Positions 1-33,451 of a stretch of DNA of 33,862 bases are shown in pieces. Both the position numbers and the translations under genes were made by a program. Location of the stretch: the IMG/VR virus record IMGVR_UViG_3300017963_000216, positions 1 through 33,862 of that record; one strand, 5' to 3'. The notes under the pieces were generated by a model. It did no database searches, was not told the DNA's origin, and worked only from the letters and a program-made list of their open reading frames with translations. Position 1 is the stretch's first letter, and every line of letters starts with the position of its first letter. The DNA is from a virus (taxonomy: Duplodnaviria > Heunggongvirae > Uroviricota > Caudoviricetes).

Positions 1-476
1 AGCTTGAAGACGCTACAATTGTTGGGACATGCATATTCGTGACGCATCACCAAACCCGCACGACTGACACGATGGAACCTAGCCGGTTCAATCCCGCACT
101 TCCGCATAATCTTACGCCATGGCTCGCCGTGCCCGCCCTCTTCCCTACACCAGCCAGCATTGATATAATCGTCAATGGCATGACAAGCCTCATGAACGAT
201 AGTTTCCTGCCGTTCCTCAGAACCTGCATTACCGAACAAACCGACAGAAAGTGTCATGGTCCAGCGTCGCGGCCCGGAATCACCGTACCCCCCAAAGGTG
301 CGGTTTCGCTGGCGACCGATTTTACCCATTGCGCGGGTCATGCGGTTTGACCATTTAATGTCGATCAGTTCGGCCAAGGCCGGACAACCGTTACATTCGC
401 ACGCGAACTCGATCCACTCACGGACCTCTTTATCCGCTACAATCGCGTTACCCATTGCATTCGCTCTAGTCGTCAT
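1..476 (-). CDS. SprT-like zinc metalloprotease (partial, runs off the window start; not in ORF track)
   Basis: Manual translation from ATG at 476 (ATGA overlap with upstream stop): MTTRANAMGNAIVADKEVREWIEF...IKWSNRMTRAMG...ETIVHEACH...GHGEPWRKIMRKCG..P.RFH...YACPNNC. No stop before position 1. The W-S-x-R-M-T-x-x-x-G, HExxH, HGxxW and terminal YxC motifs are SprT family hallmarks. Confidence 0.85.
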   Translation of the reverse strand, partial: MTTRANAMGNAIVADKEVREWIEFACECNGCPALAELIDIKWSNRMTRAMGKIGRQRNRTFGGYGDSGPRRWTMTLSVGLFGNAGSEERQETIVHEACHAIDDYINAGWCREEGGHGEPWRKIMRKCGIEPARFHRVSRAGLVMRHEYACPNNCSVFK

Positions 477-1080: not shown

Positions 1081-1165
1081 GTTGTTCGCGTCCCTTGACT
1101 ACATTAAACCTACAACGCAAAACGCCACCCGTCCACTAAAATCGCGAAAGAAAGCCAAAGTATTT
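1081..1165 (-). promoter_or_regulatory. 85-bp direct repeat, copy 2; leftward promoter plus leader
   Basis: Base-for-base identical to 628-712 (offset 453). Confidence 0.75.
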
Positions 1166-1226: not shown

Positions 1227-1452
1227 AATCCGGACAGAATCCGGACATTTCCGGCCACCACCGGACAACCGGCACAATCGGCATAACCCCTGCGACCGGC
1301 ACGACTTGCACGATTCGGACGACCCGGACGACCGCTGCGACCCGGACAGCCAGGACTCCTAAGGGCCATATGTCTGGTATCTGGTATCTGGGGTTTTGGG
1401 ATCTGGCCGGATTTCCTTTTGCGGAAACATATGGTATCCAGCATATGGTATC
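1227..1452. repeat. non-coding periodic repeat array at the divergence point
   Basis: (C/T)CGG cores at 1230, 1241, 1251, 1261, 1269, 1278, 1296, 1315, 1324, 1342 (AATCCGGACA twice). TGGTATC at 1375, 1382, 1432, 1446; CATATG at 1367, 1428, 1442. Confidence 0.7.
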
Positions 1453-1534: not shown

Positions 1535-1951
1535 ATGAGAATGAAGAGAGAGATCGCCAAGCTGAACGTGGAGGGTGCGAAGATGACCTTGCCGCTGGCT
1601 AACCATCCGTTTGACCGCTACCGCTGGGGGCTCAAGGCCGTCCTCCTGGAGAATTGCGGGCGTCCCATCGCCGACACCCTGGACTACTGCGAGTACGATC
1701 AGCGGTTCACCGTGGAACTCAAGGTGGCTGCCATGCCCGCCGACTGCCATGACTCCCTCAAGGCGTGCGACGACTTCCGCATGGAGTTAAGCAAGGTGTT
1801 CGTGATCGACCCGCTAGATGACCTGGAGCCGCAGATCGACGAGCTGCTGGAACTGCGAGCCCACTTGCACCAATCCCACGCACAGATGAGTGTGCTGCTC
1901 TCGCTCTACCGTGAGGGCTACAAGATGGTCGAGGACCGCATCCCGGAATGA
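1535..1951 (+). CDS. hypothetical protein
   Basis: First ORF after the promoter; GAGGA RBS; C/G-ending codon bias. Confidence 0.75.
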   Translation: MRMKREIAKLNVEGAKMTLPLANHPFDRYRWGLKAVLLENCGRPIADTLDYCEYDQRFTVELKVAAMPADCHDSLKACDDFRMELSKVFVIDPLDDLEPQIDELLELRAHLHQSHAQMSVLLSLYREGYKMVEDRIPE

Positions 1952-2018
1952 ACTTGACATAAGACGCAAGCGCACAAGCGCAAGCGCGAATTCCAAATCC
2001 CAAAACGAAAGATGAAAA

Positions 2019-2324
2019 ATGCTGGAACCAGCTAAGCGCCTTGAGAAAATCTCAATCCGATTCATGGGCCCTCACAGCAGTGATCTGTTCAAGTGCCTGT
2101 ACATTCCGCCCGTCGACTTCGAGCACGTGTCCATCGGCACCGGCGAGAGCAAGTCGGTCGCGGCAACCCGTGCCATCGCTCACCTGCAAGGTGAGGGCTT
2201 CTCTCCCATCCTGGACGAGATCCGGGACGCGGTATCGAACATGATGCCGGGAGCGCCAGACGCTGTCGAAGGCGATGGTTTCTGCCAAATCTACTGCATC
2301 ATAGGAGTCACAGCCGAACGATGA
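2019..2324 (+). CDS. hypothetical protein
   Basis: Co-oriented ORF with ATGA overlap to the next gene. Confidence 0.65.
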   Translation: MLEPAKRLEKISIRFMGPHSSDLFKCLYIPPVDFEHVSIGTGESKSVAATRAIAHLQGEGFSPILDEIRDAVSNMMPGAPDAVEGDGFCQIYCIIGVTAER

Positions 2325-7202: not shown

Positions 7203-7469
7203 ATGCTCAGCAAAAACATGACAGCCAAGGCCGCCGCCTTCCAAGTAATGAAGGACGAGTTCGAGCAGCACATCATGGACGAGATAGTGAAGGTAGCCAC
7301 CCAGATGAACTTGGATGAAGCCGCGTTCCTGCATTACGGCAACATGTACACTAGGGGGCATTACGAAGTCCCGAGCAAGAGACTGGACGCGCTGGACGAC
7401 CTGTATTGTGACAACATCCACAGTGGCGGCTTCCAAGGCATCTGGCAGAAAGAGAAAGGCTGGAGCTAA
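7203..7469 (+). CDS. hypothetical protein
   Basis: GAGGA RBS after the promoter. Confidence 0.75.
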   Translation: MLSKNMTAKAAAFQVMKDEFEQHIMDEIVKVATQMNLDEAAFLHYGNMYTRGHYEVPSKRLDALDDLYCDNIHSGGFQGIWQKEKGWS

Positions 7470-7609
7470 TGAAACGCTACATCGTCATCATGCACGGCGG
7501 CGACGTCCGAGAGTGCACCTTGGAGAATGGTGCCTATGTTCATGTCCTACACAGGGCGTGGCAAGTCTTGACAACCGATTCACGAATCAAGAGAGTGAAA
7601 GAACTATGA
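7469..7609 (+). CDS. small hypothetical protein (46 aa, below ORF-track cutoff)
   Basis: MKRYIVIMHGGDVRECTLENGAYVHVLHRAWQVLTTDSRIKRVKEL; TAATG and ATGA overlaps fill the gap exactly. Confidence 0.6.
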   Translation: MKRYIVIMHGGDVRECTLENGAYVHVLHRAWQVLTTDSRIKRVKEL

Positions 7610-8766
7610 TCGACTCGTACAACATCTACGGCGGCGACGGAATCGACCAGGGGTCACGCACCCAGATGGACAACGCTATCGCCCTGCCGAGCGCACGCAA
7701 GGCAGCCCTGATGCCTGACGCGCACCTTGGCTACGGCCTGCCCATCGGCGGCGTGCTCGCCACCGAGGGAACCATACTGCCATATGGTGTCGGCATGGAC
7801 ATCGCCTGCCGCATGCGGATCACGCTGGCAGCTGCGCACCCTCTCATGCTCAACGTCCTGGAGGGCAACTGCCCGCAAGAGAACGCCTACCTGGACAAGG
7901 GGCTCCGTGAAGGCACCCGGTTCGGGATGGGCAACGACTACTCGCCCGGCGAGCGTCAGAGCCACCCGGTGATGGACGACCCAGAGTGGGACACAACACC
8001 GTTCCTCCGCGAGCTGAAAGACAAGGCGTGGAACCAACTCGGCACCAGCGGTGGCGGAAACCACTTCGTCGAGTGGGGCCTCTGCACATACAACACCCGA
8101 GAGTACATCGCTCTCATGTCTCACAGTGGGTCGCGAGGCTGCGGCCATCAGGTCTGCACACACTACACCAAGATCGCCAAGGAACTGAACCCGGCTGGCG
8201 AGTTGTCGTGGCTGGACCTGAACAGCGAGGCCGGGCAGGAATACTGGCACGCGATGAACCTGATGGGCCGCTACGCTGCGGCAAACCACGAGGTCATCCA
8301 TCGCAACGTGTTCCGTATCGCCGGTCTTGGGCGTGGGGCTCACGTAGAGAATCACCACAACTTCGCATGGATGGAAGAGCACGACGGCAAGGACCTGATC
8401 GTACACCGCAAGGGCGCGACCCCGGCAGCCATCGGCGACATGGGAGTGATCCCTGGTTCCATGGCCACCCCGGCGTACATCGTCTCAGGCAAAGGCAACG
8501 CTGATAGTATCTGCTCAGCGTCGCACGGTGCGGGACGGCTGATGAGCCGCAGCGCTGCTAAGAAGGCCTTCAACTGGCCTGAGTGGCAGGATTACCTGGG
8601 CGAGCGCGGCGTGCGATTGTTGCAGGGTGGCCTGGACGAAGTGCCGGGTGCCTACAAGGACATCACCAAGGTAATGGCAGCCCAGAGCGACTTAGTCGAC
8701 ATCGTAGGGGCGTTCATCCCGAAGATTGTTATGATGGCCCCACCCCAGAAACGAGGACGCCGATGA
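7606..8766 (+). CDS. rtcB: RtcB-family RNA ligase
   Basis: MPDAHLGYGLPIGGV, VGMDIAC, QLGTSGGGNHFVE, HSGSRG, NHHNFAW, VHRKGATPA, IPGSM, SASHGAGR, DEVPGAYKDI. Start set at 7606, not 7315. Confidence 0.95.
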   Translation: MIDSYNIYGGDGIDQGSRTQMDNAIALPSARKAALMPDAHLGYGLPIGGVLATEGTILPYGVGMDIACRMRITLAAAHPLMLNVLEGNCPQENAYLDKGLREGTRFGMGNDYSPGERQSHPVMDDPEWDTTPFLRELKDKAWNQLGTSGGGNHFVEWGLCTYNTREYIALMSHSGSRGCGHQVCTHYTKIAKELNPAGELSWLDLNSEAGQEYWHAMNLMGRYAAANHEVIHRNVFRIAGLGRGAHVENHHNFAWMEEHDGKDLIVHRKGATPAAIGDMGVIPGSMATPAYIVSGKGNADSICSASHGAGRLMSRSAAKKAFNWPEWQDYLGERGVRLLQGGLDEVPGAYKDITKVMAAQSDLVDIVGAFIPKIVMMAPPQKRGRR

Positions 8767-9172: not shown

Positions 9173-9618
9173 ATCGCAACGCTTTCTTTGACATCATCAA
9201 CGCCCGCTCGGCGGCTTATGCCGAGGCCAACGCCTACGACGAAGCGATCAGGTCCGCCTCCAAGGCGTGCAACGCCGTAATCGACGGCAAGCAACGCGAG
9301 CCGTGCGACTCGCACAGTTACAAAATCGAGGAGATACTTCGGTACGGCCACAAGTTCATCATCAAGTTCACCGATGGCTCGTGGCTGGGCGTCACCGCAG
9401 ACGACTGCGAGTACGACAACGAAGGGCTGCAATACAACGAGCGACTCAGCTACGATGACGCCTACAAGCTGGGCATCCTCACCGAGGAGTTGTACGGAGC
9501 GTGGCGTGAGGCCTGCGAGAACAAGACGAGCCGCGAGAAGAACACCCGAGGCATGACGGCCTTGCAAGAGGCTATGACCTGCCTCGGCACCGAACGCATC
9601 AAGGAACTGGTCAAATGA
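9169..9618 (+). CDS. hypothetical protein
   Basis: ATGA overlaps; strong coding-like codon bias. Confidence 0.75.
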   Translation: MNRNAFFDIINARSAAYAEANAYDEAIRSASKACNAVIDGKQREPCDSHSYKIEEILRYGHKFIIKFTDGSWLGVTADDCEYDNEGLQYNERLSYDDAYKLGILTEELYGAWREACENKTSREKNTRGMTALQEAMTCLGTERIKELVK

Positions 9619-9797
9619 ATCCACTCACAATCCTAGCATCACAGTCGCTTCACGACTGGCAAGCAGAAGCTAAGGCCGCTGGCTATGACGACACCTATGA
9701 GTACGTCGCCAAGCACACCGGGGCAACGCGACACGAAGTGAAGAACCTTTTCTTCGCTCAGTTGTACGGCGGACCTGGAACAATGAGGAAATACTGA
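9615..9797 (+). CDS. 60-aa protein resembling the family A DNA polymerase fingers (motif B/O-helix)
   Basis: TRHEVKNLFFAQLYGG fits R-x3-K-x3-F-x3-YG, preceded by a D(T/I)(Y/H)-like segment DDTY. Confidence 0.55.
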   Translation: MNPLTILASQSLHDWQAEAKAAGYDDTYEYVAKHTGATRHEVKNLFFAQLYGGPGTMRKY

Positions 9798-10384
9798 TGA
9801 ACCACTGGCGCACCATCCGATACACTGACGACGGCTGTTACCTGTACGAGTGCCTCTCCTGCAAAGAGCGGTGGGAAGCTCGGCAGGCTCCCGGCTACTA
9901 CGACCAGTGGGTCGACACAGAGGTGCAAGTGGAGGGTGGCTGGACCACCACGAGCAGCGGCGTGCCTCACCACTACGCCAAGCGCGCTGTGCCCGTGTAC
10001 GTGCCGCACTGGCGGTTCTGCCCTTACTGCGGCACCACGTGGAAAGGCCCCATCCGTTGCGACATCGACAACCCATACATGTATGGCGAGCGGCGTAAGC
10101 TGGCCTACAACTGCGACCGTGGTGGCTACTGCAACCCGGATTACTGGTACTGCATCATGGTGTCCGAGGGGCGGCAACCCTACATCACCTCCAAGGTGGA
10201 CCCGCGAGAGCACAGCATCATCGAGGTGCATGAGTTCGTCAAGCGGAAGAACGCCGAGGCAGAACCCGAGTTGAGGTGGCGTGGCAATACGCCAGAAGAG
10301 GTGAAAACCATATACTCCATCCGCATCATGAAGGACAGTGCGATGGAGCTTCGAGGTTATGTCCGTTCGGAGTACATTCGATGA
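9797..10384 (+). CDS. zinc-ribbon hypothetical protein
   Basis: YECLSC...FCPYCG. Confidence 0.75.
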   Translation: MNHWRTIRYTDDGCYLYECLSCKERWEARQAPGYYDQWVDTEVQVEGGWTTTSSGVPHHYAKRAVPVYVPHWRFCPYCGTTWKGPIRCDIDNPYMYGERRKLAYNCDRGGYCNPDYWYCIMVSEGRQPYITSKVDPREHSIIEVHEFVKRKNAEAEPELRWRGNTPEEVKTIYSIRIMKDSAMELRGYVRSEYIR

Positions 10385-14277: not shown

Positions 14278-14648
14278 AATCTCTCGAAGACCTAATCCAG
14301 CCGGGCAAACAACTCTGCATCCGGAAGCACTCGGCCCCTGGCATGTCCGGCTACTCATGTACCATCCGCGAGATCCCTGAATGTGAGGAGTCGTTTTCGT
14401 GGGGCGAGGCCGGACACAGCGAGAAGCCTTTGTGTGCTGTGAACAACTTCGTGGCTCTGCAAAACGGCATCGGGGTCTTCCGGGAAACAAGCGAGTTCAA
14501 GGAACTCACCTTGACCGGTGATCAAGTCCAGAAAGTGAAAGCGGCACTCAATGGTCTCAAAGTGGACAAGTACGGGGACGTCATCGTCACCTGCTCGCTT
14601 AGTGCGAAGGTGGACGACGCGCTCGCCATCATTGGAGCGCAACGATGA
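14274..14648 (+). CDS. hypothetical protein
   Basis: ATGA overlaps. Confidence 0.7.
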   Translation: MKSLEDLIQPGKQLCIRKHSAPGMSGYSCTIREIPECEESFSWGEAGHSEKPLCAVNNFVALQNGIGVFRETSEFKELTLTGDQVQKVKAALNGLKVDKYGDVIVTCSLSAKVDDALAIIGAQR

Positions 14649-15187
14649 AGTGCAACAAGTACCAGAAACTGGCGTTGAAGTCTGTGGACTATGGCTGCGG
14701 GCGACCCATTGAGTACCCACCCTACGGCCTGTGCGGCGAGATGGCTGAGGTGCTCAGTGAGTTCCACTCATGCTCTCACGGTGACGATGACGCGTTACTG
14801 CTTGAGATCGGCGATTGCCTGTGGTATATCTCTGCCATGTCCGACGACATAGGGCTGAAGCTGAGCTATGTCCTCGACGTGAAAGACCTCAAGGATGTTG
14901 TTCCGTACCCGTGCCCAGCTAGCAACCTCCCCATCTTCTGTGGGACGGTGGCAGAGCAAGTGAAGAAGATGGTGCGCGACGACTGTAAGCGTCTTTCCAC
15001 CGCCAGGATGAACAAGATCGTAGGGGCCTTACGAGGTGCGGCGAGATGTCTGCAAGGGCTCGCCAACGAACGGGAGGTGGTGCTGGATCGCAAGGGCAAC
15101 CTGATAGGTTACAGCCTGAACGAAGCCGCCTACCTGAACCTCGACAAGCTAAAGACCAAACGAGAGAAGAAAGGCAGTGTAGGATGA
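14645..15187 (+). CDS. MazG-like nucleotide pyrophosphohydrolase
   Basis: YQKLA...YGLCGEMAEV...LLLEIGDCLWYI; second half VAEQVKKMVRD...NLDKL. Confidence 0.8.
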   Translation: MKCNKYQKLALKSVDYGCGRPIEYPPYGLCGEMAEVLSEFHSCSHGDDDALLLEIGDCLWYISAMSDDIGLKLSYVLDVKDLKDVVPYPCPASNLPIFCGTVAEQVKKMVRDDCKRLSTARMNKIVGALRGAARCLQGLANEREVVLDRKGNLIGYSLNEAAYLNLDKLKTKREKKGSVG

Positions 15188-16104
15188 GCAGCATCGTTGA
15201 ATCACTGGCCAACAAAGGCCTGATCGACCCGCCAGACTTCGTGAAGTCCAACACCATGTACGAGTGCGTGGTGGGGTCTGTGGCATACGGCTGTGCCACC
15301 AACCTGAGCGACTACGACACCAACGGCTTCTGCATCCCGCCGAAGAACGTTGTGTTCCCTCACCTGAAGGGAGAGATCGAAGGCTTCGGTCGACAGAAGA
15401 AGCGATTCGGTGGCTGGCAGAAGCACCATGTGTTCGACAAGGACGCCTTGGGCGGCAAAGGCCGAGAGTACGACCTGAACATCTACAACATCGTCAACTA
15501 CATGCACCTGTGCATGGAGAACAACCCCAACATGGTGACGACGTTGTTCGTGCCTCGCGAGTGCGTTCTGTCGACCACCTCGGTCGGCGAGATGGTGCGA
15601 GAGGCCCGCCACAAGTTCCTGCACAAGGGCGCGTGGCACCGGTACAAGGGCTACAGCTACGCCCAGCTGCACAAGATGAAGGGGAAGAACCCGGAGCCCG
15701 GCAGCAAGCGGGACAAGCTACGGAAAGAGTTCGGGTTCGACGTGAAGTTCGGCTACCACACCGTCCGGCTTCTGTACGAGGCCGAGATGATCCTGAACGA
15801 GCACGACATCGACCTGCGGCGGCATCGGGAGCACCTGAAGAGCATCCGGCGTGGCGAGCAGACGATGGACGACATCATCGCCTGGGCGAGCAGCAAAGAG
15901 AAGGCCCTTGAGAAGGCCTACGAGGCCAGCTCGCTGCGTCACAGCCCAGACCAGCCCGCCATCAAGACTCTGCTGTTGGACTGCTTAGAGCACCACTACG
16001 GCAGCCTGGAGGCATCTGTGGTCCGGCCCGACGAGCTGACCCTGATCCTGGACAACATTACTGAACAAGTTCGCAAGTACGAAAGGGTACGTGACCGCAA
16101 ATAA
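15184..16104 (+). CDS. DNA polymerase beta-superfamily nucleotidyltransferase (RlaP/YcgL-like)
   Basis: VVGSVAYGCATNLSDYDTNG (GS-x-AYG...SDxD), NPNMVTTLF, KFGYHTVRL. Confidence 0.85.
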   Translation: MSSIVESLANKGLIDPPDFVKSNTMYECVVGSVAYGCATNLSDYDTNGFCIPPKNVVFPHLKGEIEGFGRQKKRFGGWQKHHVFDKDALGGKGREYDLNIYNIVNYMHLCMENNPNMVTTLFVPRECVLSTTSVGEMVREARHKFLHKGAWHRYKGYSYAQLHKMKGKNPEPGSKRDKLRKEFGFDVKFGYHTVRLLYEAEMILNEHDIDLRRHREHLKSIRRGEQTMDDIIAWASSKEKALEKAYEASSLRHSPDQPAIKTLLLDCLEHHYGSLEASVVRPDELTLILDNITEQVRKYERVRDRK

Positions 16105-16108
16105 ACAT

Positions 16109-16247
16109 TCTACCGTAGTGTTAATGGTGAGCATGACTTAGCCGACGGGCTGGGCCCCAGCGAAGGCGCACTCCTACCATGGGAGGAGAAAGTCGCAAGC
16201 ATGCCGGTTTCAACCCGGTGGAGGTGGTTCGATCCCACCCGGTAGGA
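16109..16247 (+). tRNA. atypical tRNA-like RNA with UCA anticodon-like arm and 68-nt insertion
   Basis: Acceptor TCTACCG/CGGTAGG + A; D-arm GTGT-TAATGGTGA-GCAT; T-arm GGTGG-TTCGATC-CCACC; arm GCCGG-TTTCAAC-CCGGT at 16203-16219; no encoded CCA. Confidence 0.6.
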
Positions 16248-16250
16248 CTC

Positions 16251-16283
16251 AACCCGGAGAAGGGAAACTTTCTTCGGGTTTTT
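16251..16283 (+). terminator. intrinsic terminator
   Basis: AACCCGGAGAAGG-GAAA-CTTTCTTCGGGTT then TTT; 13-bp stem including G-U pairs. Confidence 0.8.
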
Positions 16284-16296
16284 CTATGCGCTTTAC

Positions 16297-16330
16297 TTGA
16301 CTCTGCCTAGGGGCGTTGTATGCTTTAAGT
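16297..16330 (+). promoter_or_regulatory. sigma70-type promoter (subtype A)
   Basis: TTGACT(16297-16302)-N16-TATGCT(16319-16324)-TTAAGT; A/C-rich leader and AGGAG RBS. Confidence 0.8.
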
Positions 16331-16366: not shown

Positions 16367-16579
16367 ATGAACGAAGTCCTAGCCGAACTCGCCAAACACG
16401 AAGATCCTAAAGTCCGAGCCCTGGCCGAGAGAGGCCGGGAGCACCACAACCGACGCACCCGCATCATCGAGCTGGTACAGGAGGCTCTCCAGCAGCTTCG
16501 CCTCGACACGAAGTACCTCGTCTTCGACCTGGAGTGCACCCGCCGCGAGCGCGACGCCGCCATGGGAGATGCCCTGTGA
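16367..16579 (+). CDS. small helical protein resembling a conserved planctomycete hypothetical protein
   Basis: LQQLRLDTKYLVFDLECTRRERD resembles the motif LRLxxKYLVFDLEATRRE that I recall from Planctomycetes; not verified. Confidence 0.65.
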   Translation: MNEVLAELAKHEDPKVRALAERGREHHNRRTRIIELVQEALQQLRLDTKYLVFDLECTRRERDAAMGDAL

Positions 16580-18787: not shown

Positions 18788-18823
18788 TTGACAACCTCCA
18801 CCTAGGGTGTATACTTTAGGTAG
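18788..18823 (+). promoter_or_regulatory. sigma70-type promoter (subtype A) driving the mini-tmRNA
   Basis: TTGACA(18788-18793)-N16-TATACT(18810-18815)-TTAGGTAG. Confidence 0.85.
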
Positions 18824-18827
18824 AGAA

Positions 18828-18925
18828 GGGGGCGAAACAGATTCGACTACCGCCCGCCTGAGGCTAAAGGCCCATGCTCACAGCCGAGGGTGGCTAGGAC
18901 TCCGGGGCAGTACCGGACGCCTCCA
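18828..18925 (+). ncRNA. tmRNA reduced to its tRNA-like domain (no mRNA-like domain)
   Basis: Acceptor GGGGGCG/CGCCTCC + A with a G3-U70 wobble; stemless D-loop AAACAGATTCGAC; P2-like helix CTACCGCCC/GGGTGG(C)TAG; GAC linker; T-arm TCCGG-GGCAGTA-CCGGA. Confidence 0.85.
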
Positions 18926-18952: not shown

Positions 18953-19414
18953 ATGAGCAATTCATCTGAATCGCTGAACGAAATCACGCAGGACGGCAGT
19001 CGCGCCGCCATGGCCGAGAAGACTTTGCAGCTGCTGAAAGCCAACCCTGGCAAGACGGCCAATGAGCTGGAAGAACTCGGCGGGTTCAAGGACGGCCAGA
19101 TCCGGAAGCGACTGAATGACCTGCTCCGGCAGGAACTCGCCTCACAAGGCCCCGCACGCGTCTCTGAGGTCACGGGGAAGCCCAACCTCACATGGTACAC
19201 CAAAGAGGACGCCGAGCTGTTAGGCATCGAGCGAGAGGCTCGCCCGATCACCTGCAAGGCGAAGGTGACGAACTCTTCAGGCGTGACCGAGTATGACATG
19301 GTCCTGAACGAGTCCACCAAGGACGGCCAGTGCATCACGTTCATGTTCCCAGTAGCCGTCACGATCTACCCTGAAGACTCTGTCAAAATGACCTGGACTT
19401 TCAAAGCGGAGTGA
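18953..19414 (+). CDS. winged-helix DNA-binding protein
   Basis: LQLLKANPGKTANELEELGG....IRKRLNDL...V..G..R....TG..  pattern; AAGGG RBS. Confidence 0.7.
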   Translation: MSNSSESLNEITQDGSRAAMAEKTLQLLKANPGKTANELEELGGFKDGQIRKRLNDLLRQELASQGPARVSEVTGKPNLTWYTKEDAELLGIEREARPITCKAKVTNSSGVTEYDMVLNESTKDGQCITFMFPVAVTIYPEDSVKMTWTFKAE

Positions 19415-27503: not shown

Positions 27504-28552
27504 CCTCTGAATGGCCTTTCATTGCACATAGCCCAGAAATCATCGTTGCCATCGTTCGGTGGCGGGATGTCCATCACCTGACAACGTTTGTCGCTATCCT
27601 CGCGACTCAGCTCGGTAAAGATGTGTCCGCTATGAACCGTCTCCCACATCGAGGTGATGCGGTTCATCAGGCTGTGCTGCCAGAACTCGGACACTCGGCA
27701 GCGGTGTTGCGCCACTCGGATGAGCGGCTTGAAGTCCTGCACCTCGATGACCTCATCCGAATCCTTGTTCTCGACCAGCATCTTGTCCTGGGCGATCTTG
27801 TCAGGGTTCGGCTTGCAGGCCAGTTGGTCGATGCCGACGATGGTGTCTTCATCGCCCACTTCCATGCCCATCAGCCACGAGTAGATCGTGATCTGGTCGG
27901 CCCATTTCTTATCGACGTCTTCCATCCAGTGAGCACCAATCTTGTGCCCCTTGTGATCCATCTCCTCAAACTTCGGGTGAGGCTTGGAGTGCCCGCCGCC
28001 GCGAGTGGCCTTGCGAGTCTTGGTCGGTTCCCAGCAGTCGATGCACGACCGGTAGAACTTCTTCGGTGACTGCGGACTCTTCGAGCAGTAGCCCATGACC
28101 TTCCAGTCGTACACCACCTGGACGTCCAGCTTGTACCAGAGGTCAGGCTTGCCCACCAGAGGCACCCCCTTCACGTCTCCGGTCAGTTTGAACTCGAAGC
28201 GGGGATCTTCCTCGCTTCGCAGCAACTCCTGTAACAGGGCGTCGTAGATGCCCCAGGTGCGATAGCAGTCGAAGCAATACTTGCCTGCGCCCCACGCCCA
28301 CTCTCGGTTGGCCTCATCCACCTGCTCGTTGAACAGCCGCTTCAGCTCGTACACGCCATCGCCATCGTTGCCAAAGATGTGATGGTGCAGCGCGCACTTC
28401 ACGAAAGCATCGAACGCCGAGCCCACGCTGGCCGGTCGGCTCTGGGGGTCGTACGGAGCCCGGTAGTCGGACAGGTACTTGCGGTAGAAGTCGTCCTTGT
28501 CGCGCTCCCACTGGAACAGCGACGTAGGGGATATGGCTTTCAGCTCTCTCAT
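27500..28552 (-). CDS. PD-(D/E)xK nuclease (RecB/Cas4-like exonuclease)
   Basis: ISPTSL..W...FY..YL, VGSAFD, RFE...LVGKPDL...VYDWKV. Start set at 28552. Confidence 0.85.
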   Translation of the reverse strand: MRELKAISPTSLFQWERDKDDFYRKYLSDYRAPYDPQSRPASVGSAFDAFVKCALHHHIFGNDGDGVYELKRLFNEQVDEANREWAWGAGKYCFDCYRTWGIYDALLQELLRSEEDPRFEFKLTGDVKGVPLVGKPDLWYKLDVQVVYDWKVMGYCSKSPQSPKKFYRSCIDCWEPTKTRKATRGGGHSKPHPKFEEMDHKGHKIGAHWMEDVDKKWADQITIYSWLMGMEVGDEDTIVGIDQLACKPNPDKIAQDKMLVENKDSDEVIEVQDFKPLIRVAQHRCRVSEFWQHSLMNRITSMWETVHSGHIFTELSREDSDKRCQVMDIPPPNDGNDDFWAMCNERPFRG

Positions 28553-28553
28553 G

Positions 28554-29288
28554 TTATACTCCAGAAAGGTAGTTGCGGAACTCGCGTGCGGCCTCGCGAG
28601 ACTTGAAGTCTCGTTGTCGCTCGGTGCTCGGCACGGGTGGTGACGCCAGCGGGTTGAGGCCGAGTGCGTGCAGCGTCTTGTTCCACGGGCTGGTAGAGCC
28701 GCAAGGCAGCGACCGGAAGTCCTCGTAGGCGAACGCGTCGTCGGTGTGGACGCCCAGCACACGTCGATAGAATTGGTCTTGGTCGATGATGGTGGCCAGC
28801 CGCATGGCGATGTTCTCGAACGACAGGTCAGGCTCTCCCTTGGCCTCGTGTGTGCTCTTCCACTGATTGGTAGAGACGGCCTTGGCCAGCGACACAGCCT
28901 GCTGGACCTTGTCCTCGCGGTAGATCCACACCATGTGGTCGAAGCCCATGTCACCGACAGCGAACTCATACTCTTTGGAGATGTGGAGCAGCTGTCCGAT
29001 GTGGACGTGTAGGCTGAAGCAGCCTTTGGGAGCTGTCTTCCGCGTGACGAAGTCCAGGTACTCTGGCAGGCTGAAGGTGTCATAGTTCATCACCTCTTGC
29101 CACGCGGCAAAGTGCTTCTCGTTGAACCACTCGTCTACGATACCCACCTGCCCGTCGTTCGTCAGCACGTCGCAGAACAGGGTGGAGCCAGACCGAGGCG
29201 TCGACACCACCAAGAGGCCAGTCGTCGGTTCTGGGTTGTCTGGCTGGGTCGCCAATGTCTCAAACAGTTCGATGTGAGGGCTGCTCAT
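28554..29288 (-). CDS. Stf0-like PAPS-dependent sulfotransferase
   Basis: VSTPRSGSTLFCDVL (5'-PSB loop), EWFN, IYREDKVQQAVSLAKAVSTNQW (3'-PB helix). Confidence 0.85.
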   Translation of the reverse strand: MSSPHIELFETLATQPDNPEPTTGLLVVSTPRSGSTLFCDVLTNDGQVGIVDEWFNEKHFAAWQEVMNYDTFSLPEYLDFVTRKTAPKGCFSLHVHIGQLLHISKEYEFAVGDMGFDHMVWIYREDKVQQAVSLAKAVSTNQWKSTHEAKGEPDLSFENIAMRLATIIDQDQFYRRVLGVHTDDAFAYEDFRSLPCGSTSPWNKTLHALGLNPLASPPVPSTERQRDFKSREAAREFRNYLSGV

Positions 29289-32771: not shown

Positions 32772-33451
32772 CTCGTAAGTTTAAGGAACTCGTCGTACAA
32801 TTCTTTCTTTCTTCGGTGGATGGTGGTCTTGCCTATACCAAACTCATCCGCCAGATCCGCCTCAGTCCTGCCCCAGTTCTCCGGACACAGCAGCATGGCG
32901 TCCAGCCAGTCACGTGCCTCTATCTTCTCCAGACCTTCGTACACGTCCCGGATGTTGAACATCATGCGTTGGTCGTCCACATCCACATCCACATCGTCCA
33001 GGCTAGTCTGGCTGAGATAGATTGGGTCTTTGTCTTCTTTCACCCGTCTGAACTGAGTCATCCTGGATGGTGCCGACAGACTCTGCACCTTGTTCAGCAT
33101 CAGCTCAATGCTGGATTGAATACGTTGAGACGCTACATAAAGTATAGTCCGCCCATTCAATAAGTCAACGCTTAAATTCTCAACTAAGTCACAAATTGCC
33201 AGAAACCCTTCACTGACCATGTCATCCAAGTAGGCCTCGGTCTGGGGGAAGTTGGCGAGATACCTACGGATCATGTGGCGTAGACATGACCTGAGAGCGA
33301 GCACAAGCCTCTCTCCCTCGTCCGGACAGCCTATCACCACCGCACACAGCAGGTCCAGTTCGGAGTCCCTGTAGGGCTTACAGTGGTCCAGGAGAGGGTG
33401 TTTGAATGTCCGCACGTTGGTGTGGAAGTGTCTGAGGTTTATCAAGCTCAT
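32768..33451 (-). CDS. sigma70-family-like RNA polymerase sigma factor
   Basis: Region 2-like ERLVLALRSCLRHMIRRY...LDDMVSEGFLAI...YVASQRIQSSI; C-terminal HTH TEADLADEFGIGKTTIHRRKKEL. Start set at 33451 (ATGA). Confidence 0.75.
   Translation of the reverse strand: MSLINLRHFHTNVRTFKHPLLDHCKPYRDSELDLLCAVVIGCPDEGERLVLALRSCLRHMIRRYLANFPQTEAYLDDMVSEGFLAICDLVENLSVDLLNGRTILYVASQRIQSSIELMLNKVQSLSAPSRMTQFRRVKEDKDPIYLSQTSLDDVDVDVDDQRMMFNIRDVYEGLEKIEARDWLDAMLLCPENWGRTEADLADEFGIGKTTIHRRKKELYDEFLKLTR

Follow-up and report, generated by a model that had tools for sequence, protein, structure and literature searches.

A tag-less, tmRNA-like RNA gene of the DS6A kind in an uncultured marine phage

The phage DNA analysed here encodes, on the plus strand at positions 18828-18925, a 98-nt RNA that has the fold of the tRNA-like domain (TLD) of tmRNA and contains no tag frame. 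The gene is very probably real and of the kind found in mycobacteriophage DS6A, and we assign a probability of about 0.6 to the reading that it is a functional phage gene, the product of which, a tag-less mini-tmRNA of the DS6A type, lowers SsrA tagging and trans-translation. Most bacteria need trans-translation or benefit strongly from it, and the process is a target for antibiotics. The window, by which we mean the whole analysed stretch of 33,862 nucleotides, makes up the initial third of a viral record of 101.6 kb that was judged 96% complete and comes from an uncultured marine phage. DNA of the phage is present in one sediment and one seawater metagenome run, and the runs listed with it include no RNA run. 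The genes for the major head protein, portal, tape-measure protein, DNA polymerase, helicase, and primase are those of a tailed phage, and six tRNA genes are located in the genome outside the mini-tmRNA site.

The RNA can be divided into an acceptor stem, a stemless D-loop, a P2 arm, and a T-arm (Table 1), and all the TLD landmarks listed in the first-pass annotation are present in the sequence. The acceptor stem consists of seven pairs with a G-U at position 3. The pair G3-U70 together with the discriminator A73 constitutes the alanine identity set recognized by AlaRS. The discriminator is directly followed by CTT, and the CCA end is therefore not encoded. The 3' end of the D-loop can be read as GAUUCGAC and as GATTCGAC. 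The whole P2 arm between the D-loop and the GGAC connector has a length of 49 nt. P2 had been proposed to start at the C of TTCGAC, which is not supported; the homologues favour a register that starts from the pair U21-A69 and continues through A22-U68, a bulged C67, and C23-G66 to C28-G61. The same register, built from different letters, is found in homologue L001. The resume codon, tag ORF, stop codon, and flanking pseudoknots of a full tmRNA are not present in the window RNA. The GCC-UGA inside P2, put forward earlier as a possible release cassette, occurs in the window copy only, where it lies inside a 3-bp hairpin; it is kept in no homologue, and none of the homologues has a conserved alanine codon followed by a stop inside P2.

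Table 1. Features of the mini-tmRNA locus and of its rightward gene block (window coordinates)
Feature	Position	Strand	Remarks
RtcB RNA ligase	7315-8766	+	same rightward block as the mini-tmRNA
MazG-like pyrophosphatase	14645-15187	+	same rightward block as the mini-tmRNA
RlaP-type (RNA-repair-associated) nucleotidyltransferase	15046-16104	+	same rightward block as the mini-tmRNA
Sigma-70-type promoter (predicted from sequence)	18788-18815	+	TTGACA 18788-18793, 16-nt spacer, TATACT 18810-18815
Short 5' leader (inferred)	18816-18827	+	about 5-6 nt past the predicted start; from promoter geometry and the precise point at which the model match begins
Mature mini-tmRNA, TLD only, 98 nt	18828-18925	+	R1 model match and family covariation
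Acceptor stem, 5' strand GGGGGCG	18828-18834	+	G3 = 18830; partner 18918-18924
Stemless 13-nt D-loop AAACAGATTCGAC	18835-18847	+	'AG' elbow dinucleotide present
P2, 5' strand UACCGCCC	18848-18855	+	partner 18888-18896, C18894 bulged
P2 interior, 32 nt	18856-18887	+	irregular hairpin extension; neither tag frame nor pseudoknots
P2, 3' strand GGGUGG(C)UA	18888-18896	+	comparative pairing
GGAC connector	18897-18900	+	a conserved tmRNA element; invariant in 14/14 aligned homologues; present in host tmRNAs
T-arm TCCGG-GGCAGTA-CCGGA	18901-18917	+	5-bp stem, stacked on the acceptor stem; 7-nt loop GGCAGUA 18906-18912
Acceptor stem, 3' strand CGCCTCC, and discriminator A73	18918-18925	+	U70 = 18922; A73 = 18925; trailer CTT
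Downstream ORF, 153 aa, phrog_1123 (function unknown)	18953-19414	+	PHROG match

The structural assignment is based on a family of homologues, which were collected by pattern scans of viral contigs and metagenomes and sorted by script. The same one-piece frame was found at 40 viral loci, which correspond to 16 unique sequences from about 12 lineages, and at several additional metagenome loci. The form had been regarded as rare; simple pattern scans place it on at least 40 viral contigs, where it is invisible to ARAGORN and Rfam. The letters of the acceptor stem, P2, and T-stem vary between lineages among the 16 unique viral sequences. The covariance model R1 was built on alignment A3 from eight homologues from other loci, with the window excluded. 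It produced a single match in the window, at 18828-18925 (+), which covers model positions 1-79 of 79 and scores 50.3 bits, with an E-value of 5.7e-12 that is rough, as are all E-values of this short-calibrated model. No second match was found over the 101.6-kb phage.

The window RNA thus belongs to a covarying family that extends across many phage contigs. In alignment A5, which has 21 members, 95.7% of the cells are paired, compared with 66.4% in shuffles, and 15 of the 18 pairs changed on both sides; the fitting of A5 to the model favours the structure, and the stems are also directly visible in the raw sequences. When the partners are slid against each other, the pairing falls to 31-47%. 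The acceptor stem is paired in 100% of family cells, with the G-U at pair 3 in 20 of the 21 members and A73 in all 21. In P2, 87% of cells are paired and all six modelled pairs change on both sides, and in the T-stem the pairing reaches 99%, with four of five pairs changing on both sides. The search for homologues suggested in the first-pass annotation has thus upheld the conservation of G3-U70 and of the P2 and T-stem pairings. The D-loop TCGAC is invariant among the aligned homologues; the D-loop of the window RNA conforms to the ending (U/A)CGAC of the DS6A type, with P2 immediately after it and closing directly ahead of GGAC. The P2 interior ranges from 25 to 60 nt among the homologues, and neither its sequence nor a frame is conserved. 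The compensatory changes across the family show that the structure is under selection.

The fold energy of the lone window sequence is not significantly different from that of shuffles (z = -1.5), and the support for the structure is therefore comparative. ARAGORN, with default and relaxed thresholds, called neither a tmRNA nor a tRNA at the site, and at -ps80 it returned 57 spurious permuted calls. Rfam has no match for the RNA at gathering thresholds, and the gathering scores of the full tmRNA families RF00023, RF01849, and RF04321 are not reached. At relaxed thresholds, the Rfam model alpha_tmRNA matches the 3' half only, with 17.8 bits and an E-value of 0.0013 against a gathering threshold of 50, and its T-loop consensus GGCgGUA agrees with the loop in the window. 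An identity as tRNA-Ala was rejected: there is no ARAGORN tRNA call even with relaxed thresholds and no RF00005 match at E-values up to 10, and the D-stem and the anticodon arm with a 7-nt loop that characterize tRNA-Ala do not occur at the site. When the locus, the RNA, and an abundant homologue were compared by blastn with 50,697 phage records, all matches were 20-30 nt long and at chance level. No metagenome sequence matched a pattern tailored to the window and L001, and comparison of the protein encoded at 18953-19414 with viral contigs identified no close relatives of the phage.

Several contigs carry additional TLD-like elements. L028 has two mini-tmRNA paralogues, at 5-81 (+) and 1317-1392 (+), with the identical acceptor stem GGGCCTG/CAGGTCC; one has a GGCAGTA T-loop and a D-loop AG, the other a canonical TTCGATT loop and a D-loop GG. 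In L002, the mini-tmRNA at 1931-2009 (+) is followed 2 nt on by a second TLD-like RNA at 2012-2114 (+), which scores 41.8 bits. In the second RNA, G3-U70 is replaced by A3-U70 and the D-loop ends in TTCAC, so that it is probably not an alanine acceptor. L239 contains, at 1120-1153 (+) directly upstream of its mini-tmRNA at 1154-1250, a second tmRNA-like 5' motif, in which a G-rich strand precedes a D-loop that terminates in GGTATCGAC. L115 (4283-4370), L209, L237, and L240, which are Thermoleophilaceae MAGs and two metagenome contigs, have in common a conserved element about 88 nt long. It contains GATTCGAC, a GGCAGTA T-arm, and CGCCTCC-A, has no obvious 5' acceptor partner, and scores 28-37 bits with R1.

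The promoter of the RNA gene matches 11 of 12 consensus positions (TTGACA-16-TATACT) and is the sole such site within 1.2 kb, where 0.4 are expected from shuffles. A strict regular expression applied to the 101.6-kb genome found two consensus promoter sites, that of the mini-tmRNA and one at 33141-33168 (-). The minus-strand promoter has the sequence TTGACT-16-TATACT, is directed leftward, and has the same TTAKGTAG downstream box. The TATACTTTAKGTAG context is common to the promoter of the mini-tmRNA and the minus-strand promoter at 33168. Being one of only two strict consensus sites and sharing this context fits early transcription by the host RNA polymerase. The end of the -10 box is separated by 12 nt from G18828, and the leader would be removed by RNase P. 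The trailer A-CTT of the mini-tmRNA resembles those of the phage tRNA genes, four of six of which have C-T-T after the discriminator, and CCA is absent from five of six. The shared CTT trailer points to one common 3' maturation route, followed by CCA addition by the host.

The gap between the 3' end of the RNA and the downstream ORF is 27 nt, and no plus-strand terminator-like site was found in it, so the ORF is probably co-transcribed with the RNA. Homologue L073 is located directly 3' of a tRNA gene, and the same placement is found in other members of the family. These arrangements suit a role in cis, in which the fold serves as processing punctuation that recruits RNase P and RNase Z and defines the 5' end of the downstream mRNA, and the RNA would do nothing in trans once released. 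We consider this quite improbable, because such punctuation would have no need for G3-U70, A73, the D-loop TCGAC, or GGAC, which are conserved across unrelated genomic contexts.

The host of the phage is more likely to belong to the phylum Planctomycetota, as suggested by a 70-aa protein with unknown function that is encoded at window 16367-16579 (+). Its homologues are found in 24 of 201 Planctomycetota genomes, with a best E-value of 2.7e-12 and up to 71% identity, and in one of 201 Alphaproteobacteria, with an E-value of 8e-4. The capsid and polymerase matches have 22-33% identity and are to phages of many phyla, and the capsid has weak matches in 6 of 301 Planctomycetota genomes, neither of which says anything about the host. 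An alphaproteobacterial host, first inferred from the elbow of the RNA, was dropped, because the 70-aa protein favours Planctomycetota and phage Melnitz demonstrates a mismatch between elbow and host (PMC9004378). Planctomycetota tmRNAs are one-piece and have the canonical T-loop in all 19 that were parsed; their acceptor stem GGGGGCG/CGCCTCC is the same as in the window, and 6 of the 19 lack an encoded CCA. The window TLD is identical to Planctomycetota tmRNAs at 37-38 of 49 positions, and if the host is from this phylum, the RNA was not copied recently from the ssrA of the host. In 151 Planctomycetota genomes, R1 found no mini-tmRNA apart from one weak element of 28.5 bits. This element, located in L283 at about 1501-1586 (G134:C145:6185-6270), has a length of 86 nt, the acceptor stem GGGGGCG/CGCCTCC, a canonical T-arm, an encoded CCA, and a divergent D-loop region. 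It could represent either a mini-tmRNA, from the chromosome or a prophage, or a fragment of ssrA.

Since ssrA is a frequent integration site of phages, which then bring along its 3' end (PMC9004378, PMC11915505), the locus might be a remnant of host ssrA, namely an attP core or a fragment from imprecise excision, without RNA function. This origin is highly improbable. The absence of an integrase (no match to tyrosine integrase PF00589 in the 96%-complete genome), the presence and pairing of both TLD halves, and the compensatory changes across the family all disfavour it. Furthermore, the gene lacks the CCA that is encoded in nearly all alphaproteobacterial ssrA genes that were seen, and it is not permuted, in contrast to the cellular genes with a GGCRGUA elbow.

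The T-loop GGCRGUA is a hallmark of the alphaproteobacterial two-piece tmRNA. A genome scan identified more than 100 alphaproteobacterial ssrA genes with the GGCRGUA loop, of which 103 are permuted, with the acceptor piece before the 5' piece; CCA is encoded in nearly all of these genes. The D-loop covaries with the T-loop: together with GGCRGUA, the dinucleotide AG is found at -9/-8 in 15 of 16 phage mini-tmRNAs and 103 of 104 alphaproteobacterial tmRNAs. Molecules with canonical loops have GG at -9/-8, as observed in the second copy in L028 and apparently also in the parsed Planctomycetota D-loops. The window RNA has the complete alpha-type elbow, a resemblance that the first-pass annotation did not mention, yet in standard gene order. 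A parallel to the probable mismatch with the host is the Methylophilales phage Melnitz, which has an alpha-type tmRNA and a non-alphaproteobacterial host (PMC9004378). Complete two-piece permuted tmRNAs of the alpha type are present in many viral contigs, among them L016 at 9510-9872 (-), L019, L020, L021, L022, and some 50 other loci. With Rfam alpha_tmRNA they reach 88-130 bits, and they resemble the tmRNAs of Melnitz and of pelagimyophages.

The elbow could also be read as a feature of a decoy, in which the RNA mimics tmRNA or tRNA and, instead of affecting trans-translation, absorbs a host defence factor (for example, a nuclease, RNase R, or a sensor) that detects elbows of the tRNA type. 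The elbow unlike that of the likely host's own tmRNA, the L028 paralogues with two elbow types on the same acceptor stem, and the RNA-repair genes nearby would suit such a bait. The decoy is nevertheless improbable, because known defence systems do not include one directed at the TLD, and the kept AlaRS identity and SmpB-side elements fit the trans-translation machinery better. It is rather doubtful that an un-permuted lineage of TLD-only RNAs with an alpha-type elbow spreads among phages regardless of host, the present phage with its probable Planctomycetota host and the canonical elbow of that host's tmRNA included, in which the elbow is adaptive and the RNA acts with the neighbouring RtcB and RlaP in protecting translation against host ribotoxins. 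An adaptive elbow might provide independence from host T-loop modification, escape from elbow-recognizing defence, or altered handling by SmpB and the ribosome. In homologue contig L236, some 440 nt separate the mini-tmRNA from an RtcB homologue downstream of it, and this linkage, together with the RtcB, RlaP, and MazG neighbourhood in the window, offers a thin fit to a translation-protection theme. A relaxed Rfam scan of window 16050-16320, just past the nucleotidyltransferase gene, gave no match.

Judged by analogy with DS6A, the mini-tmRNA is plausibly an antagonist of trans-translation, and membership of the same family as the DS6A RNA makes interference with host ribosome rescue probable. 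Host RNA polymerase would make the RNA early in infection, at the head of a transcript extending into the next ORF. RNase P and a 3' tRNA-processing nuclease would excise it, and the host CCA-adding enzyme would supply the CCA end. Host AlaRS would then charge the RNA through G3-U70 and A73, and host SmpB, possibly together with EF-Tu, would bind it. No SmpB gene was found in the phage genome, and the phage would therefore depend on the SmpB of the host. Because it has no resume codon, the RNA would either take SmpB away from the tmRNA of the host or occupy stalled ribosomes as a substrate that leads nowhere. By either route, SsrA tagging and normal trans-translation would be reduced during infection. 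It counts against this explanation that the GGCAGUA/AG elbow is unlike the T-loops of the phylum to which the host probably belongs, which are canonical, so that the SmpB of that host might not bind it.

The strict retention of the alanine identity (G3-U70 in all but one of the 21 members, A73 in every one) would suit a productive, tag-less form of rescue, although the inhibition reported for the DS6A-like RNA needs no charging (PMC4131195). In this form of rescue, a complex of alanyl-mini-tmRNA and SmpB would take over the stalled peptide, extending it by one alanine, and the ribosome would be freed by Pth after drop-off or by an ArfB-like release. Ribosomes on cleaved mRNAs would be recycled, and phage proteins would remain unmarked for proteolysis. 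Tag-less rescue would agree with the persistence of CDS-less tmRNAs together with SmpB in mitochondria and plastids (PMC11915505), and with the RNA-repair genes for RtcB, the RlaP nucleotidyltransferase, and MazG in the same rightward block, to which the short distance to RtcB in L236 can be added. Although credible, this form of rescue is unlikely, because a peptidyl-TLD without a resume codon has no known release route and the linkage to RtcB is found in two lineages only.

If the RNAs block or re-route ribosome rescue, as the antagonist reading holds, many phages would be using them to counter the host at the level of its translation apparatus, and nature would offer in them small inhibitors of trans-translation. 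The TLD-only kind is already known from DS6A and from CDS-less organellar tmRNAs; DS6A is the only phage example in the literature that we found (PMC4131195, PMC11915505), and no paper on the breadth of the phage mini-tmRNA family was found in open-access text. The window adds a well-supported further example, a tested link to DS6A, and a usable covariance model. It also reveals that phages have the 'alphaproteobacterial' elbow in genes of standard order, probably in hosts other than Alphaproteobacteria, and a probable mismatch between the elbow of the window RNA and that of the host's own tmRNA.

The two-piece alphaproteobacterial tmRNA (RF01849, RF04321) is similar to the window RNA in its elbow, GGAC, and acceptor stem GGGGGCG/CGCCTCC, and the window TLD halves agree at 43 of 49 positions with tmRNAs from Thalassobaculaceae and comparable marine Alphaproteobacteria. 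In contrast, the two-piece genes are permuted and have CCA, a tag frame, and pseudoknots, all of which the window RNA is without, and they score 88-130 bits with Rfam, compared with 17.8 bits for the window RNA. An assignment to the alphaproteobacterial two-piece tmRNAs was therefore rejected because the gene order in the window is standard and not permuted. The CDS-less tmRNAs of jakobid and oomycete mitochondria and of Mallomonadaceae plastids also consist of little beyond the TLD and have no tag frame (PMC11915505). The mitochondrial gene of Jakoba libera is an alphaproteobacterium-derived tmRNA that was 're-permuted' to the standard order (PMC11915505). The organellar RNAs, which are likened to the window RNA by description, differ in being non-viral and in having a dedicated imported SmpB (PMC11915505).

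The closest known counterpart is the RNA of mycobacteriophage DS6A, which was listed as 'TLD only' by Hudson et al. (PMC4131195) and is the mycobacteriophage precedent to which the first-pass annotation refers. A molecule similar to the DS6A TLD is reported to inhibit tmRNA strongly, perhaps via titration of SmpB, and the inhibition is independent of charging (PMC4131195). The 2025 tmRNA database contains nine unique 'standard, no CDS' tmRNA sequences, and the accompanying paper again reports an inhibition of tmRNA by the DS6A form in E. coli (PMC11915505). The R1 model that matches the window also identifies the DS6A element, at 28478-28557 with 39.5 bits and a rough E-value of 1.2e-8, in the unannotated gap between gp33 and gp34. 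The inner hairpin CCGCACGCGG of the DS6A element is also found in homologue L002. Both the DS6A RNA (tmRNA Website tmID 11587) and the window RNA are one-piece molecules in standard order, with a 7-bp acceptor stem, G3-U70, A73, a stemless D-loop ending in CGAC, a short P2 with a small hairpin, and a 5-bp T-stem. Neither has a tag frame, pseudoknots, or an encoded CCA, and both are located in phage intergenic gaps without GenBank annotation. The DS6A RNA differs in its T-loop, TTCGATT instead of GGCAGUA with a D-loop AG, and in having GCAC at the site of the window GGAC. It has a length of 80 nt with a 30-nt P2 arm, compared with 98 nt and a 49-nt P2 arm in the window. The inhibition in E. coli was obtained with a canonical-loop molecule, whereas the loop of the window RNA is GGCAGUA. 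The match of both RNAs to the same model and their common architecture indicate that the window RNA is of the DS6A kind. The earlier description of the RNA as TLD-only and tag-less, in standard gene order under its own promoter, is thus borne out by the covariation, the Rfam alpha_tmRNA match to the 3' half, and the recovery of DS6A. The proposed titration of SmpB or tag-less entry into stalled ribosomes would agree with the reports on DS6A-like RNAs (PMC4131195, PMC11915505).
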